This document shows, piece by piece, positions 58,552 to 62,703 of a stretch of DNA of 64,000 bases (the first letter of the stretch is position 1; each line of letters begins with the position of its first letter). This stretch comes from an uncultured Verrucomicrobiae bacterium (lineage in GTDB: Bacteria; Verrucomicrobiota; Verrucomicrobiia; Opitutales; JABDGR01): assembly GCA_963765205.1 (NCBI GenBank), contig CAVXVB010000008.1:384001-448000 (forward strand), in the 5' to 3' direction. The notes under the pieces were generated by a model. The model made no database searches, was not told where the DNA came from, and was given only the letters and a program-made list of their open reading frames with translations. The translations under genes and the position numbers were made by a program.

Positions 58552-59223
58552 TTACCCTTTGGACTGTTTGAGACGCGGGTGTTTGCGCGGCGCGGGTTTG
58601 GCCACGGCGACGACACCGATGCCGAGCGTCTTATCGAGGGTCCGGTCAATGAATTCCCAATTTTGGGGATACCCAGCTTTGATTTTTTGCCAGGCGCGAC
58701 TGACCGTGGCGCGGGGCAGGACAATGTCGCAGAAAGCGACCCAGCGGCAGTGGTTTTTGACTTTATCGAAATCGTGGAGGACCCATTTTTCGGCGTGGCA
58801 GGCGTCAATGAAGGCGAGGTCGTAGCGTTCGCGGCCGAGGTTGATTTCATCGGTGCGGGCGCGGCGGTAATCGGTTTTGGGAAAGCGCCAGCGGTATTCG
58901 ACGAAGTCGTAGGGGGCGGCGCTTTGGTCGTAGCCGAGGCTGTGTTGGAAAGCGGGGTTGGCGGCGCGGAGGTAGGAATCGGCCATGAAAAAGGAGCCGC
59001 CGTTGCTGACGCCGATTTCGACGTAGGTGTTCACGCGCTTTGATCCCATGAAAATTAGGAACTCGGCGAATTCGCGGGGGTTTTGGAGGAGGCGCAAATT
59101 CGAACTGGGTTTGCCTTTGAAAACAAAATGGCAATGCGGCTCCAAAAACGCAGTGAGCCAAGCCACATCGCCAAGACGGGACTGGTTTTTTCTGAAGTGG
59201 TCGTAAAGCTCGAAATATTTCAC
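58552..59223 (-). CDS. Class I SAM-dependent methyltransferase (Methyltransf_24-like)
   Basis: YVEIGVSNGGS, AFIDACH; GTG start assumed. Confidence 0.65.
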   Translation of the reverse strand: MKYFELYDHFRKNQSRLGDVAWLTAFLEPHCHFVFKGKPSSNLRLLQNPREFAEFLIFMGSKRVNTYVEIGVSNGGSFFMADSYLRAANPAFQHSLGYDQSAAPYDFVEYRWRFPKTDYRRARTDEINLGRERYDLAFIDACHAEKWVLHDFDKVKNHCRWVAFCDIVLPRATVSRAWQKIKAGYPQNWEFIDRTLDKTLGIGVVAVAKPAPRKHPRLKQSKG

Positions 59224-59493
59224 GTGGGGGGGAAAAGATGGAAGACAGGAGTCAGGTGATAGAAGCCGGACAGCGGGGCCGTGGGGGGTGTTGATAAAGT
59301 GGTTGGACTGGGTTGGATTTGGGCAAAAGGCGCTGAGGAGCCAAGGCACTTAGCCGCAGGTGATTTCCCCGACAATCAGAAGGCGTTTGCATTATTTTAT
59401 TTAAATACAGCACATAATTTTTTCGGAATTATGCACTTCACAAAGGCCACGCTCTGACGGCCTAAGCTGGCCGATTCCCTGATTTTGGGGCGG

Positions 59494-59625
59494 CTATTTC
59501 TTGCGGGCCTTGGCCTTCGCCGTCTTATACGGCGGGATGGCCTCTGGCTTCACTTGCACGACCCGGCGCATCAGGTCTGCGAACCTGACGGGCGGATGGC
59601 GCAATTCTTGGGATTGCGGTTTCAT
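59494..59625 (-). CDS. Small basic protein (43 aa) inside the IS1595 element
   Basis: MKPQSQELRHPPVRFADLMRRVVQVKPEAIPPYKTAKAKARKK, read by hand (below the ORF track cutoff). Confidence 0.5.
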   Translation of the reverse strand: MKPQSQELRHPPVRFADLMRRVVQVKPEAIPPYKTAKAKARKK

Positions 59626-59648
59626 GGCTACGCTGTCAAATAGCACGG

Positions 59649-59879
59649 ATGGGATATAAACGCAAGGGCGACAAAGGGGTATCCATTACCCTACCAGCAG
59701 AGCTTGTGGACTATATTGAAAAGCGAGCAAAGCGCATTAACGGGTCTAAGTCATGGTATGTCGCGGAAATTATTCGCGCGTGGGTGGATGCTGGCGGGAA
59801 GCCAATCGGAAGGCTGGATGAGAAAATGCAAAATGACGAAGATGGGCTTGGCAATCCACCGACTCAAAGTAAAAAGTGA
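59649..59879 (+). CDS. Ribbon-helix-helix (CopG/Arc-like) DNA-binding protein
   Basis: GVSITLPAELVDYIEKRA...SKSWYVAEII. Confidence 0.7.
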   Translation: MGYKRKGDKGVSITLPAELVDYIEKRAKRINGSKSWYVAEIIRAWVDAGGKPIGRLDEKMQNDEDGLGNPPTQSKK

Positions 59880-59886
59880 TATAAAG

Positions 59887-59940
59887 CTGGAGCTACCGGA
59901 GCTTATGAAGCTACTGAAGTAATTTAAGTTACCGGAGCTA
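59887..59940 (+). repeat. Six degenerate 9-bp tandem repeats
   Basis: CTGGAGCTA CCGGAGCTT ATGAAGCTA CTGAAGTAA TTTAAGTTA CCGGAGCTA. Confidence 0.65.
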
Positions 59941-60022
59941 GTTCGGGATAATCGTGAAACCGTCTTGTCATTCGGTAACGTTCCCGTATTTTCTCACTAT
60001 GCCCGATGATAGACTATAAGTA

Positions 60023-60643
60023 ATGACGAAGCTCGACCTCGAAACGGCGGAGCAGCTTTTGGCATTGAGGTTGAGGCGGTATGATGAATTGAAAGTGGAA
60101 ATTGCAAATGTGACTTCTCAAATTCAATCCTTAGTTGATGACATCGGTGCCGTTAAGTTAGAGCAGGCCAATCAACAAAATCTTGATGGCGGAACGCCTG
60201 CTAAAATTGAGCGTCCTGAAATCAAGACACCGGCCAATGATGCCGACATTCGAGGGCGTGAAAAATACGGGGCGGCGCGCAAGGCAATAATTGTCCTTTT
60301 GCGCGAACAGGGGCCGCGTTTAATAACAACGGAAAAAATGCAGGCGGAATTAAAAATTCCACCTTCTACATTATATCGAAACCTTACTGATTTGCAGGCG
60401 GATGGAGTTATTTCCAAAATTGGAAACGCATGGTGTTTTAGCGCAATGATAAGTTCGTCCCCTTCCAGCTATCAGGCATACATAAATGAGCTTACAAATC
60501 AAGGCTTCATCGCAAACGTAGATTTAACTGCATCACCCCCGGCAACCATTCCCTATACTTCCCCGAAACCCCCTAAGGCTCGGGGGCCTAACATTTCCAA
60601 CAAATTTAATATGCCTCCACAAAACGGCGCGGCAACCGGGTGA
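60023..60643 (+). CDS. Coiled-coil plus winged-HTH-like protein
   Basis: N-terminal heptad pattern; MQAELKIPPSTLYRNLTDLQADGVI. Confidence 0.6.
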   Translation: MTKLDLETAEQLLALRLRRYDELKVEIANVTSQIQSLVDDIGAVKLEQANQQNLDGGTPAKIERPEIKTPANDADIRGREKYGAARKAIIVLLREQGPRLITTEKMQAELKIPPSTLYRNLTDLQADGVISKIGNAWCFSAMISSSPSSYQAYINELTNQGFIANVDLTASPPATIPYTSPKPPKARGPNISNKFNMPPQNGAATG

Positions 60644-60773
60644 TCCCCACTTAAGCGCGCCTCTGCAAAGAAATAACCCCCTAACTCTGGCCCAACTTCG
60701 CGGGCGGAACCAGAAAGGGGGTCGGTAATCCCGAGGGGCCAGATTGCTCTGGCCGCTCGTTCTTTTCCAATTA

Positions 60774-60861
60774 GCCTATGTGGTGTAACTGGCAGCCACG
60801 TCCGCCTTGGGGGCGGTTGCCTGTGTGAGCAGGCGTGTGGGTTCGACCCCCACCATAGGCA
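60774..60861 (+). tRNA. Atypical type II tRNA: tRNA-Leu-like body with UGG (Pro) anticodon; CCA not encoded
   Basis: GCCTATG/CATAGGC acceptor stem, A73, D-arm GTG-TAACTGGCAGC-CAC, anticodon loop CT-TGG-GG, variable arm GCCTGT-GTGA-GCAGGC, T-arm GTGGG-TTCGACC-CCCAC. Confidence 0.8.
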
Positions 60862-60918
60862 TTTTTTATAGGATGACAAACAAAATTTTTAACCGAAAAC
60901 TTGAACGAAAATAAATTT

Positions 60919-61365
60919 ATGAAACTGGAGATTTTTACCCTTTGCGATGAAGCGCATGAAGCAAATGGAAAGCTCTATATCAATGGGGCATTCCAAAATC
61001 TTTTTTCGGCTGGCTTCCCATGTGTCCATCCAAGATTTTGTGTGGTCGCCCGCCTTAGATTTATTCCGATAGAGATTGGAGACCACGCCATCCAAGTTAC
61101 ATTCAAAAATGAAGACGGCAAAGATGTGCTATCTATCCCCGTAATTGAACAGAAGTTTTCGGTTCAAATACCCGAAGATAAAACCTCCATTGCCCTTCAC
61201 TGCATAATTCTTATTAACGCAACACAATTAGGGGCACCTGGAGAATACATGGTGGGTTTAGCCGTTGACCGTTTGGCCCAAGCAGAGCTTCCGTTGTATG
61301 TGTCTCAAATGCCCCCGCAAGCGCAATCGCCGGAGCCGCCTTCTGTTCACGACGGGCCGCATTAG
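60919..61365 (+). CDS. DUF6941-like protein
   Basis: LCDEA...NGKLYINGAF...FP..HP...PGEY.V. Confidence 0.65.
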   Translation: MKLEIFTLCDEAHEANGKLYINGAFQNLFSAGFPCVHPRFCVVARLRFIPIEIGDHAIQVTFKNEDGKDVLSIPVIEQKFSVQIPEDKTSIALHCIILINATQLGAPGEYMVGLAVDRLAQAELPLYVSQMPPQAQSPEPPSVHDGPH

Positions 61366-61432
61366 CCCTTTTTTGCTCTTCAAATTGGGAGGTTTGGCTC
61401 ATGGCAAAAATTTATCATAACCCATATTTTTG

Positions 61433-62401
61433 TCAACCCCCTATCGTAACTGAGGCGCAGGCTGGCTCCTTATACCGCAACCGCTTGCCTTCGATGTTTT
61501 GGAGTCCGGCAATCGTGCGCGCGCCGTCAGTCAACTTGCGGGTGTTATAGCGATGATCGAACTCTGCGAGGTAGAGCGGCAAATGCTTGAGGGAAACATG
61601 ATGGAAGGTGCCGACGATACCGCGCTTGAGCAGGCTGAAAAAGCCCTCCACAGTGTTTGTGTGAACGTCACCCCGGACATACTCCCCGGCAGAGTGATTG
61701 ACCCGCGCGTGCTTAAAGCCCTTGGCCGCGCGTGGGTAGGGCCGGAATTGGTCGGTATAGACCTTTGCGCCCTCCGCCACGTTGGCCTGAATAACCGCTT
61801 TGAGGTTGTTCCCGGTGACGCACGCCATGACGCGCGAGCGGGCCTTCCCGTCGCGCTGGACAAGCGAAACGACCGGAACCTTGTTGCCAGTGTAACGACG
61901 CCCCATGCCCTTTGTTTTGCCGCCAACGTAGGTTTCGTCAATTTCCACGGTGCCGTCAAACTTCTGCCCGTCTAGCACTGGGTCTTTGAGCGCGTGGCGG
62001 ATACGGTGAGCCATAAACAGGGCCGTGCGATAGCTGCCAAGGCCCAACACCCGTTGCAATTCCAACGCGGCAACGCCCTTCTTGGCCGACGCGAACAGAT
62101 ACCAGCCGATAAACCACTTGGACAGCGGGATATGGCTGTCCTCGAAAACCGTGCCGACGGTGACGGTGAACTGCTTGTTGCACGCGCCGCACTGAATCAG
62201 GCCGGGGCGAACCTTCTTGGCCGGGTTCGCGGCAATGCGCCATAGGCTGTCCTGCTTGGCGTTGCGGCAATGGGGGCAAACCGGGCCGCTGGGCCACCGG
62301 ATGGCCTCTAGGTAGGCGCGGGCCTTGTCCTCACTGTCGAAGTGCTGCATGATTTCCGGCAGCGTGAGCGTCTCTGGGACTGGATTGAGTTGCTTATTCA
62401 T
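61433..62401 (-). CDS. IS1595 (ISXO2-like) DDE transposase
   Basis: RWPSGPVCPHC...CGAC zinc ribbon, EIDETYVGG, YTD, VNHS, HTNTVEGFF, YLAEFD.RYN. Confidence 0.96.
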   Translation of the reverse strand: MNKQLNPVPETLTLPEIMQHFDSEDKARAYLEAIRWPSGPVCPHCRNAKQDSLWRIAANPAKKVRPGLIQCGACNKQFTVTVGTVFEDSHIPLSKWFIGWYLFASAKKGVAALELQRVLGLGSYRTALFMAHRIRHALKDPVLDGQKFDGTVEIDETYVGGKTKGMGRRYTGNKVPVVSLVQRDGKARSRVMACVTGNNLKAVIQANVAEGAKVYTDQFRPYPRAAKGFKHARVNHSAGEYVRGDVHTNTVEGFFSLLKRGIVGTFHHVSLKHLPLYLAEFDHRYNTRKLTDGARTIAGLQNIEGKRLRYKEPACASVTIGG

Positions 62402-62703
62402 GCCCTCAATATAGCATAGTTCAAACCTTTGTCAAGTGCATAATTCCGAATTTTTTGGGCGGCAAGGAATGTTTTGATTTTATTCTCGAAGCGCATATAC
62501 ATAATATACCTCTTTGTGTTCAACTAGGGATCCATCATGAAGGTGAACGGCTGAAGCAAAAAAATTTAATTTTTAAGAAATTTGATAAAAGGCTCCGCAA
62601 AACTGTTGGAGAACCGCATAAATATAAATCGATTATAGAAATGCAGTACGTCAGACCAATAAAGTCAAAGGATTCGCCATAAGCACTTTTGCCCTAAAGT
62701 GAA

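Follow-up and report, generated by a model that had tools for sequence, protein, structure and literature searches.

An anticodon mismatch in a transposon-borne tRNA gene

The stretch of DNA analyzed here (the window, 64 kb in length) comes from the genome of an uncultured Verrucomicrobiae bacterium, where it corresponds to G000:C8:384001-448000; the genome comprises 4.02 Mb in 12 contigs and is 92% complete. At 60774-60861 on the forward strand lies a class-II tRNA gene that combines a leucine-type body with the proline anticodon UGG (60808-60810), and which is carried by a transposon of the IS1595 type. ARAGORN called exactly this interval (88 nt, anticodon tgg from tRNA position 35) and labelled it tRNA-Pro(tgg); its other call in the window was an ordinary tRNA-Gly(CCC) at 2911-2984. 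In a local search, the Rfam tRNA model RF00005 matched the gene over its full length (1-71) with 41.1 bits (E 1.8e-7; the gathering score is 29), and a covariance model built from the related tRNAs described below gave 82.9 bits. When the whole 64-kb window was scanned with Rfam's default filters at the gathering threshold, the tRNA went unreported, although it scores 12 bits above the cut-off. Long-armed odd tRNAs can drop out of routine scans.

The predicted cloverleaf has a 7-bp acceptor stem with G1:C72, a normal T-arm with a 5-bp T-stem, and the discriminator base A73 (60861), directly followed by TTTTTT with no encoded CCA. The D-arm, GUGGUGUAACUGGCAGCCACG, has a 3-bp stem and carries A14, A15, G18G19, and A20a. 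The variable arm, U-GCCUG-UGUGAG-CAGGC-GU, is a 19-nt region with a 5-bp stem, and U48 is present. The anticodon arm reads UCCGC/CUUGGGG/GCGGU and contains a U27:U43 mismatch. In RNAfold, C32-G38 and U33-G37 can pair as well, turning it into a 6-bp anticodon arm with a triloop (minimum free energy of -42.6 kcal/mol, z -1.85). A first-pass annotation of the window, made from the sequence alone, had listed G1-C72, A73, the D-loop, A15 with U48, the long arm, the CU-UGG-GG loop, U27:U43, and the missing CCA. Sequence and alignment confirmed all of them, as RNAfold did the remark that C32-G38 could pair. The gene thus has the A73, the Leu-type core, and the long variable arm of a tRNA-Leu, but not its anticodon (NAG or YAA); with UGG instead, it is not an ordinary tRNA-Leu. 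With tRNA-Pro it shares G35 and G36, but neither the C1:G72 acceptor end nor the short variable loop of class I.

With the anticodon masked, the nearest host tRNAs were Leu(GAG), Leu(CAG), and Leu(UAG). ARAGORN found 55 tRNAs in the host genome, including all five tRNA-Leu isoacceptors and four tRNA-Pro genes (73-77 nt; anticodons CGG, UGG, and GGG), all of the latter with C1:G72 and A73. Since the host already has full sets of Leu and normal Pro tRNAs, the window tRNA is supernumerary. It is present in single copy, and its acceptor stem is unlike that of every host Leu gene, so that it is not a recent duplicate. The host genome also contains a cluster of tRNA genes, seven in less than 1 kb (Glu, Gly, Lys, Cys, Trp, Pro(CGG), and Asn), at G000:C9:1287772-1288740; their isoacceptors are also encoded elsewhere in the genome, and the cluster is probably an array carried by a phage or an island.

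The exact 19-base D-arm of the window tRNA occurred in at least 119 stretches of species-representative genomes. In 77 of the 80 loci fetched, it lay inside a tRNA-Leu (70 UAG, 3 UAA, 2 CAG, and 2 GAG), and in the remaining 3 there was no tRNA. None of the 80 had a UGG anticodon, and the best ordinary tRNA-Leu match among them was identical at 67 of 88 positions. The tRNA was not found in 60 relatives, in which only T-arm or D-arm fragments of at most 31 nt matched. Its 3' 23-mer had no match in metagenome contigs and its anticodon-arm motif none in viral contigs, while the annotated phage and plasmid collections yielded one weak match each, both unannotated. The D-arm-plus-UGG motif of the family described below had no match in 401 genomes of the phylum, a result of little weight, as the window's own tRNA lies outside that motif.

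The base that separates UGG from UAG (60809) was compared with public sequencing data. Sequence words of the stretch occur in six public runs; four of these come from a single soil-metagenome study, and none is recorded as RNA. Four of the runs were aligned to 59200-62700. G was present at 60809 in the Logan contigs of two runs, X1 (60246-61139, 0 differences, depth 7.6) and X4 (60605-60835, 0 differences, depth 5.8), which belong to the same study; X1 may be the source sample of the genome assembly. This support for UGG is modest but real. With the same anticodon in contigs of two runs, UGG is not an assembly error, and where the first-pass annotation had allowed for a misread UAG, both contigs read UGG. 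Contigs of runs X1 and X3 span both transposon junctions, and no contig without the element (empty site) was seen among the aligned run contigs.

The transposon spans 59424-62448 (3,025 bp), and the following features were assigned to it and its immediate borders.

59416-59423, no strand: left copy of the 8-bp target-site duplication, AATTTTTT, read beside the element end
59424-59446, forward strand: left terminal inverted repeat, IS1595-type, from an inverted-repeat search
59649-59879, forward strand: ribbon-helix-helix (CopG-like) passenger gene, 76 aa (Pfam RHH_1, E 7.2e-4, 19.9 bits, below the 20.5-bit cut-off)
60023-60643, forward strand: winged-helix passenger gene, 206 aa (sub-threshold matches to HTH_24, HTH_11, and HTH_20 at residues 86-130)
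60737-60754, forward strand: hairpin of high GC content with a T-rich tract after it, 20 nt 5' of the tRNA; terminator-like by consensus match only
60774-60861, forward strand: class-II Leu-type tRNA gene, anticodon UGG (ARAGORN, Rfam, and family covariance model)
60919-61365, forward strand: DUF6941 passenger gene, 148 aa (Pfam PF22091, 110.2 bits)
61433-62401, reverse strand: IS1595-family transposase gene, 322 aa, convergent with the tRNA (DDE_Tnp_IS1595, PF12762, 123.6 bits; Zn_ribbon_IS1595, PF12760, 51.3 bits)
62408-62435, reverse strand: strong promoter-like site for the transposase within the right repeat (TTGACA-16-TATATT, 11/12 matches, TG extension; consensus match only)
62426-62448, reverse strand: right terminal inverted repeat, from the inverted-repeat search
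62449-62456, no strand: right copy of the duplication, AATTTTTT, 8 bp, a perfect match to the left copy

The inverted-repeat arms (59422-59446 and 62426-62450) are 25 nt long and 96% complementary, and 8 bp is the usual length of target duplications in the IS1595 family. Together with the transposase gene, these repeats and the perfect duplication bear out the earlier description of the tRNA as transposon-borne. The transposase has the N-terminal zinc ribbon of IS1595, and repeats and duplication enclose passenger genes, so that the element belongs with the passenger-carrying "transporter IS" (insertion sequences) of this family. It is intact and has recently transposed. Its G+C content is 51.9%, versus 57-61% in the flanks. 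Terminator-like sites in the region were no more numerous than in shuffles.

Among the passengers, the 206-aa winged-helix gene ends 130 nt before the tRNA on the same strand, and the look-alikes of its product are HTH/MarR-type hypotheticals. The DUF6941 copy is 30.5% identical to the host's own at G000:C8:256857-257246 and is, on its sequence, a second, foreign copy in the genome; DUF6941 is common in the order as a single-copy gene (99 of 201 genomes). A habitual link between DUF6941 and tRNAs was considered and dropped, as all 30 chromosomal DUF6941 loci lacked a tRNA within ~1.5 kb. No close relatives of the DUF6941 cargo protein were found in genome contigs, and the gene was absent from the other tRNA-bearing elements examined. 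The window element contains no synthetase gene.

The host genome gave 13 matches to IS1595-type transposases. The closest relative in the genome, at 76% identity, belongs to a 3.5-kb sister element (L171:186-3678; G000:C9:261263-265165) with near-identical terminal repeats, whose cargo consists of an HNH endonuclease, a zinc-ribbon protein, and small open reading frames, but no tRNA. Comparison of the two elements makes cargo swapping within one IS lineage visible. A 71-nt UGG tRNA at L197 was at one point taken for cargo of the closest transposase relative; it was dropped as a host gene, since a trpC gene lies between this tRNA and the IS.

Related tRNAs, passengers, and viral counterparts

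Relatives of the element were sought by their terminal-repeat motif, independently of any tRNA feature. The motif was found in at least 130 metagenome stretches and 9 viral stretches, amounting to at least 134 loci, fifty of which were only ~600 bases long. ARAGORN detected 17 tRNAs in the 134 loci, several of them long-armed tRNA-Pro(tgg) with a Leu-type D-arm. A first alignment of nine tRNAs (eight from the loci plus that of the window) showed compensatory changes in 20 of 25 pairs, with A15 and U48 invariant, and the covariance model built from it was used to find further members. Very long variable arms had caused ARAGORN to overlook members that the model recovered: with the window counted, 19 related tRNAs were present among the matches listed, nine of which ARAGORN misses. 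Fourteen had the anticodon UGG and three AGG; one Leu-type body carried the ochre-reading UUA, and one Ser-type body, with G73, carried UAG. Hence, among these matches, 17 of 19 members had a proline anticodon, and a Leu anticodon was found on none of the 18 Leu-type bodies. The first-pass annotation had reasoned that homologues with UAG would point to an ordinary tRNA-Leu; related elements instead carry UGG or AGG in 17 of 19 cases.

In the 19-member alignment, which was fitted to the model and somewhat favors structure, 98.2% of the cells were paired and 23 of 25 pairs had changed on both sides, whereas none of 500 shuffles did as well and slid controls reached 38-48%. The tRNA structure is evidently under selection in the family. 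Compensatory helix changes in the 16 other UGG or AGG tRNAs on related elements also show that the mismatch is not a one-off mutation. A73 was present in 18 of 19 members, and the 1:72 pair was G:C in 16, C:G in 2, and G:U in 1. When the anticodon was masked, a tRNA-Leu was the closest host tRNA for 16 of 19 members, and Leu(UAG) for 12 of those 16. GG occupied positions 35-36 in 17 members and A34 was found in 3, while the variable arm ranged from none to ~45 nt. Three members had the full canonical tRNA-Pro(UGG) loop, UUUGGGA, which equals the loop of the host tRNA-Pro.

Both terminal repeats (allowing up to 4 mismatches) were identified in 10 tRNA-bearing elements, and the tRNA lay inside in all 10; in 7 of them, the target duplication was perfect or 7 bp long. 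Transposases of the tRNA-bearing relatives were only 43-50% identical to that of the window, which indicates that the association of tRNA and element is either old or was repeatedly re-formed. Seven loci have the tRNA convergent with the transposase gene, with 0-71 nt between the tRNA's 3' end and the stop codon of that gene; this position differs in the window, L219, L234, and L235.

Passenger genes recurred as well. Family A, present in 11 loci (L192, L212, L219, L220, L234, L243, L256, L260, L312, L313, and L315), encodes a basic protein of ~60 aa in which a Pro/Lys-rich tail comes after the motif KLSLYPL..E.AL.AA..TG; it matched no Pfam family and is usually divergent from the winged-helix gene preceding the tRNA. 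Family B, in 6 loci, encodes a winged helix-turn-helix (wHTH) protein of ~140 aa on the same strand as the tRNA, 10-138 nt upstream of it. Its predicted fold consists of a long helix and a confident winged helix (predicted local distance difference test, pLDDT, ~90 over residues 71-125), for which the PDB returned only generic wHTH repressor matches (best E 1.7e-3). Pfam and PADLOC searches with families A and B and the cargo gave only sub-threshold wHTH matches. The 206-aa HTH gene of the window occupies the place that family B has in six related elements, but a comparison of its product with family B by hhalign (E 0.019, probability 2.4%) did not demonstrate homology.

Other tRNAs were observed in this IS group. 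At L291:33-220, next to an IS end (321), two tRNAs stand in tandem, one of 86 nt and Leu-type with UUA (reading UAA), the other of 93 nt and Ser-like with CUA (reading UAG). At L234:862-969, on the reverse strand between IS ends at 124 and 2499, lies a Ser-type tRNA (GGAGG acceptor, G73, Ser-like D-arm) with the Leu anticodon UAG; its nearest host tRNA is Ser(CGA), so that the mismatch is reversed relative to the UGG family. A tRNA-Arg(UCG) at L207:399-475 and a tRNA-Arg(ACG) at L235:3494-3572 were located 30-50 nt inside a terminal repeat, and a canonical-looking tRNA-Pro(CGG) at L253:3-80 was 236 nt inside, in all three cases by repeat orientation only. Thus, the cargo of this IS group also includes tRNAs that look ordinary.

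In the viral collection, 21 stretches matched a motif in which the Leu D-arm is combined with UGG at the anticodon position; two of these were contigs found before. Eight further distinct viral sequences formed good cloverleaves, scored at least 72 bits, and all had A73; two of them lay in IS elements. Ten of the 21 stretches scored 41-61 bits with long insertions and were left out as members. With other anticodons, the same D-arm motif occurred in at least 120 viral stretches for UAG, in none for UCG, and in 28 for UUG. The UUG set (L462-L489, e.g., L465, L464, L469, and L470) comprised 24 distinct sequences, 12 of which ARAGORN called tRNA-Gln. The D-arm is Leu-type, and in many of them the variable arm is long and the acceptor end has become U1:A72 (or A1:U72) with G73. 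With an acceptor end shifted toward glutamine identity, such viral UUG tRNAs resemble a class-II "tRNA-Gln" formed by remoulding of a Leu scaffold. In a 327-kb viral contig (L338:2995-4603) and in L337, a tRNA array holds Lys(UUU), two Tyr(GUA), and two Lys(CUU); it also holds a Leu-type UGG tRNA, followed 6 nt on by a 74-nt class-I tRNA with the anticodon ACU, a Ser codon reader without a Ser-type body.

Which amino acid the tRNA would carry

LeuRS and SerRS (leucyl- and seryl-tRNA synthetase) are the two systems that ignore the anticodon, and the mismatched tRNAs of these elements, including those of L234 and L291, sit on Leu or Ser bodies. Our tentative preference, held with a little less than even confidence, is for a functional Leu-type tRNA that would be charged with leucine and cause low-level Pro-to-Leu decoding, possibly with mixed charging. 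The LeuRS of Escherichia coli and Aquifex uses A73, A15-U48, G18G19, A20a, and tertiary shape, and neither the anticodon nor the variable arm (PMC9976931, PMC2377443). Across the family, the LeuRS identity set (A73, A15:U48, G18G19, and the Leu D-loop) is kept along with G35-G36. Moreover, the acceptor end has not changed toward C1:G72 except in 2 of 19 members, whereas the Gln-type phage tRNAs altered theirs. A precedent are the nematode nev-tRNAs, which are Leu-derived with Gly or Ile anticodons and were charged only with leucine in vitro (PMC3333845).

In this reading, the tRNA gene would be transcribed, in most elements along with the upstream winged-helix regulator gene, and the transcript would be processed and receive its CCA end. 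Charging would be mainly by the host's anticodon-blind LeuRS, and the charged tRNA would be delivered to CCA and CCG (CCN) codons in competition with the three normal tRNA-Pro species of the host, resulting in a low level of Pro-to-Leu substitution. As three of the four elements used by ProRS (prolyl-tRNA synthetase) are present in the window tRNA (G35, G36, and A73), a fraction of the tRNA may be charged with proline, in which case it would decode ambiguously. Candidate gains for the element are a statistical change of the proteome, induction of stress responses, and a mutator-like effect. Possible, if somewhat doubtful, is the broader proposal of a regulated "codon-swap" module, widespread among soil bacteria on phages and IS1595-type transposons, in which a winged-helix regulator would control an anticodon-swapped tRNA on a Leu or Ser scaffold, with Pro-to-Leu decoding or, in sister elements, reading of stop or Leu codons. 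If true, such a module would be a portable means of perturbing the host proteome, whether by inducing stress responses, by creating phenotypic diversity, or by acting like a mutator, and the first mobile, horizontally spreading system of sense-codon mistranslation.

Several observations weigh against leucine decoding. The nev-tRNAs caused no detectable mistranslation in vivo (PMC4300185). In the window copy, the U27:U43 mismatch is joined by an anticodon loop that can be closed through C32-G38 and U33-G37, and about half of the family has G at position 37, the other members A. One UGG member stands in a tRNA array on a jumbo-phage contig, where G+C is locally 27% and a plain supply of tRNA-Pro is the simplest reading. 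The host ProRS is, by its domains, of the E-type (archaeal/eukaryote-like): it has a ProRS-C_1 domain, and no INS/YbaK domain turned up in the genome, which is 92% complete. In an E-type ProRS adapted to bacterial tRNAPro, G72C costs 9.6-fold, compared to 135-fold in the bacterial (P-) type (PMC11229370). The first-pass annotation had excluded ProRS on the grounds of G72 and the short variable loop. Both are indeed missing, but with an E-type host enzyme, the smaller cost of G72C, and G35, G36, and A73 in place, the argument is weaker than stated.

The transposases of the elements themselves point in the same direction. CCA and CCG made up 84 of 110 Pro codons in nine UGG-bearing transposases versus 109 of 205 in 22 without a detected tRNA (Fisher odds ratio of 2.85, p 5.7e-5; the relatives are not independent, and "tRNA-less" may only reflect cut contigs), and 21 of 25 versus 23 of 49 at three conserved-Pro columns. 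A strong Leu-inserting tRNA would damage the element's own transposase. Host codon bias and relatedness may explain the contrast: the CCA-plus-CCG share was 72% in the host genes flanking L192 and 56% in the window's genome. A private code, with Pro codons where Leu is meant, was also considered and dropped, as none of the 12 transposases of tRNA-bearing elements was recoded in this way; a Pro codon at a conserved hydrophobic column was seen in 0 of these 12 and in 3 of 23 others, one each.

The main alternative, a serious rival that we rate as less likely than charging with leucine, is a remoulded tRNA-Pro: a tRNA-Leu(UAG) on a mobile element would have gained A35G and be charged with proline by ProRS, serving the element or phage as an extra decoder of CCA and CCG with little or no mistranslation. 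The codon preference of the UGG-bearing elements' transposases, also at conserved prolines, would fit such a decoder, but is confounded by host GC content and relatedness, as the L192 flanks illustrate. That the Leu scaffold can be remoulded is apparent from the phage UUG tRNAs with U1:A72 and G73; in the present family, however, C1:G72 is found in 2 of 19 members against G1:C72 in 16, and A15:U48 is kept rather than the 15:48 pair that aids bacterial proline identity (PMC9976931). The canonical UUUGGGA loop of three members favors a proline decoder, while G37 is absent in about half of the family. An E-type host ProRS with its lower G72C cost (PMC11229370) may accept the tRNA, yet the full LeuRS set is intact and nothing would block LeuRS. 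The member in the 27%-GC phage array likewise fits an added tRNA-Pro, but a normal tRNA-Pro would be simpler cargo, and L253 seems to carry one.

Improbable, in our view, is a tRNA-shaped RNA that does not decode, acting as a terminator or insulator, as a stabilizer of the transposase 3' end, as an antisense or processing signal, or as a sponge for ProRS or an anticodon nuclease. The convergent position of the tRNA close to the transposase stop in seven loci is consistent with a role of this kind, but is not kept in the window, L219, L234, and L235. Variable arms from none to ~45 nt, the nine members missed by ARAGORN, and the anticodon arm of the window copy that can be closed to a triloop also fit such an RNA; a terminator or insulator, on the other hand, would not keep G35-G36, U33, a 7-nt loop, A73, and the tertiary set of the D- and T-loops constant through such extensive divergence. 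Allo-tRNA(UAU) species described by Mukai et al. were inactive in translation, and roles linked to transposons or toxin-antitoxin systems were suggested (PMC5389517). For the decoy, antitoxin, or anti-phage role raised in the first-pass annotation, we found no evidence: PADLOC returned a convincing defense-system match for none of the four cargo proteins.

A one-off accident, i.e., a sequencing or assembly error or a recent A35G in a passenger tRNA-Leu(UAG) that is now a decaying pseudogene, would agree with the single transition between UGG and UAG, the U27:U43 mismatch, the lack of a close homologue (67/88 at best), and a 3' 23-mer found nowhere in the metagenome collection, but is very improbable given the same base in contigs of two runs, the 16 compensated UGG or AGG relatives, and the absence of Leu-type passengers with a Leu anticodon among the matches listed.

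Relation to known tRNA and transposon systems

To our knowledge, natural tRNAs that break the codon rules are rare and mostly single curiosities, namely tRNAProX, allo-tRNAs, nev-tRNAs, and yeast CUG tRNAs. In CUG-clade yeasts, the synthetase of tRNA-Ser(CAG) ignores the changed anticodon, and the amino acid is inserted at another codon. The mutA and mutC alleles of E. coli, anticodon mutants of glyV and glyW, reportedly cause mistranslation linked to a mutator phenotype (mutA). Neither is a conserved mobile-element passenger; these cases are chromosomal alleles or lineage-wide reassignments. A Leu body with a Pro anticodon, found on transposons and phages in a recurring module, is a new variant of hybrid-identity tRNAs.

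Closest in design are the nev-tRNAs of nematodes, class-II tRNAs derived from tRNA-Leu that have kept their leucylation determinants and carry a foreign anticodon conserved across species (PMC3333845, PMC4300185). The present family matches this design, with a Leu-derived body, leucylation determinants kept, and a foreign anticodon conserved among relatives. It differs in being bacterial or phage-borne, with Pro anticodons and on transposons, whereas nev-tRNAs are eukaryotic chromosomal genes with Gly or Ile anticodons. In vitro, nev-tRNAs decode GGG as Leu (PMC3333845).

The allo-tRNAs and "polycistrons of irregular tRNAs" (Mukai et al. 2017, PMC5389517) share the origin from soil or peat bacteria, a hybrid identity, and a mismatch of body and anticodon; allo-tRNAs were associated with toxin-antitoxin or transposon genes (PMC5389517). 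They have Ser or Ala identity and a 12-bp acceptor branch (8/4 or 9/3 acceptor/T), which the Leu-type window tRNA lacks with its 7-bp acceptor and 5-bp T-stem (7/5). A supplementary table of the same paper lists 16 sequences from metatranscriptomes as "tRNA2, tRNALeu (7/5)" with the anticodon UUA. Their D-arm is like that of the window tRNA, but all of them are UUA suppressors and not sense-codon readers. The terms UGG, IS1595, and "transpos" are absent from the supplementary file of PMC5389517 as available. The tandem UUA and CUA tRNAs by the IS end at L291 look like members of this irregular-tRNA class.

The tRNAProX/ProRSx pairs of Streptomyces and Kitasatospora (PMC11415595) are comparable as bacterial tRNAs of dual identity involving proline, for which deliberate mistranslation was proposed. 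Here, the arrangement is reversed: tRNAProX has a Pro body, Ala, Asn, or Thr anticodons, and a dedicated synthetase gene (PMC11415595), while the window tRNA has a Leu body and a Pro anticodon, is IS-borne, as other members are IS- or phage-borne, and has no synthetase gene in its element. A34 is found in all tRNAProX (PMC11415595) versus 3 of 19 members of the present family. The 2024 review of mistranslating tRNAs (PMC11415595) and a 2020 review of non-canonical tRNAs list, in their available passages, no Leu-type tRNA with a Pro anticodon, and a literature search, with subscription papers outside its range, found no paper on such a tRNA or on tRNA passengers of IS1595.

What sets the present case apart is the conservation of the mismatch of body and anticodon: it is shared by no fewer than 17 diverged copies, forms part of a gene module that recurs, and occurs on both transposons and phages. 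Because it rides on such elements, ambiguous decoding could be acquired horizontally in one step. Should charging with leucine prove true, mistranslation would be a transferable trait, and the tRNA a natural scaffold for sense-codon reassignment. Should proline be accepted instead, the family would be a clear example, from bacteria, of how alloacceptor tRNAs are remoulded on mobile DNA, with a bearing on the evolution of tRNA identity.

As to the carrier, the name "transporter IS" is used for IS1595 elements that carry passenger genes (PMC3129680, which cites Siguier et al. 2009). The window element resembles them in its IS1595-type transposase, terminal repeats, 8-bp duplication, and passengers unrelated to transposition; it differs in its tRNA, as the available passages of PMC3129680 mention no tRNA passengers. 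The same terminal repeats and a perfect 8-bp duplication also delimit a 718-bp element at L200:41-758, which has no room for a transposase and is a derivative of the IS group that resembles a miniature inverted-repeat transposable element (MITE) or a mobile insertion cassette (MIC).

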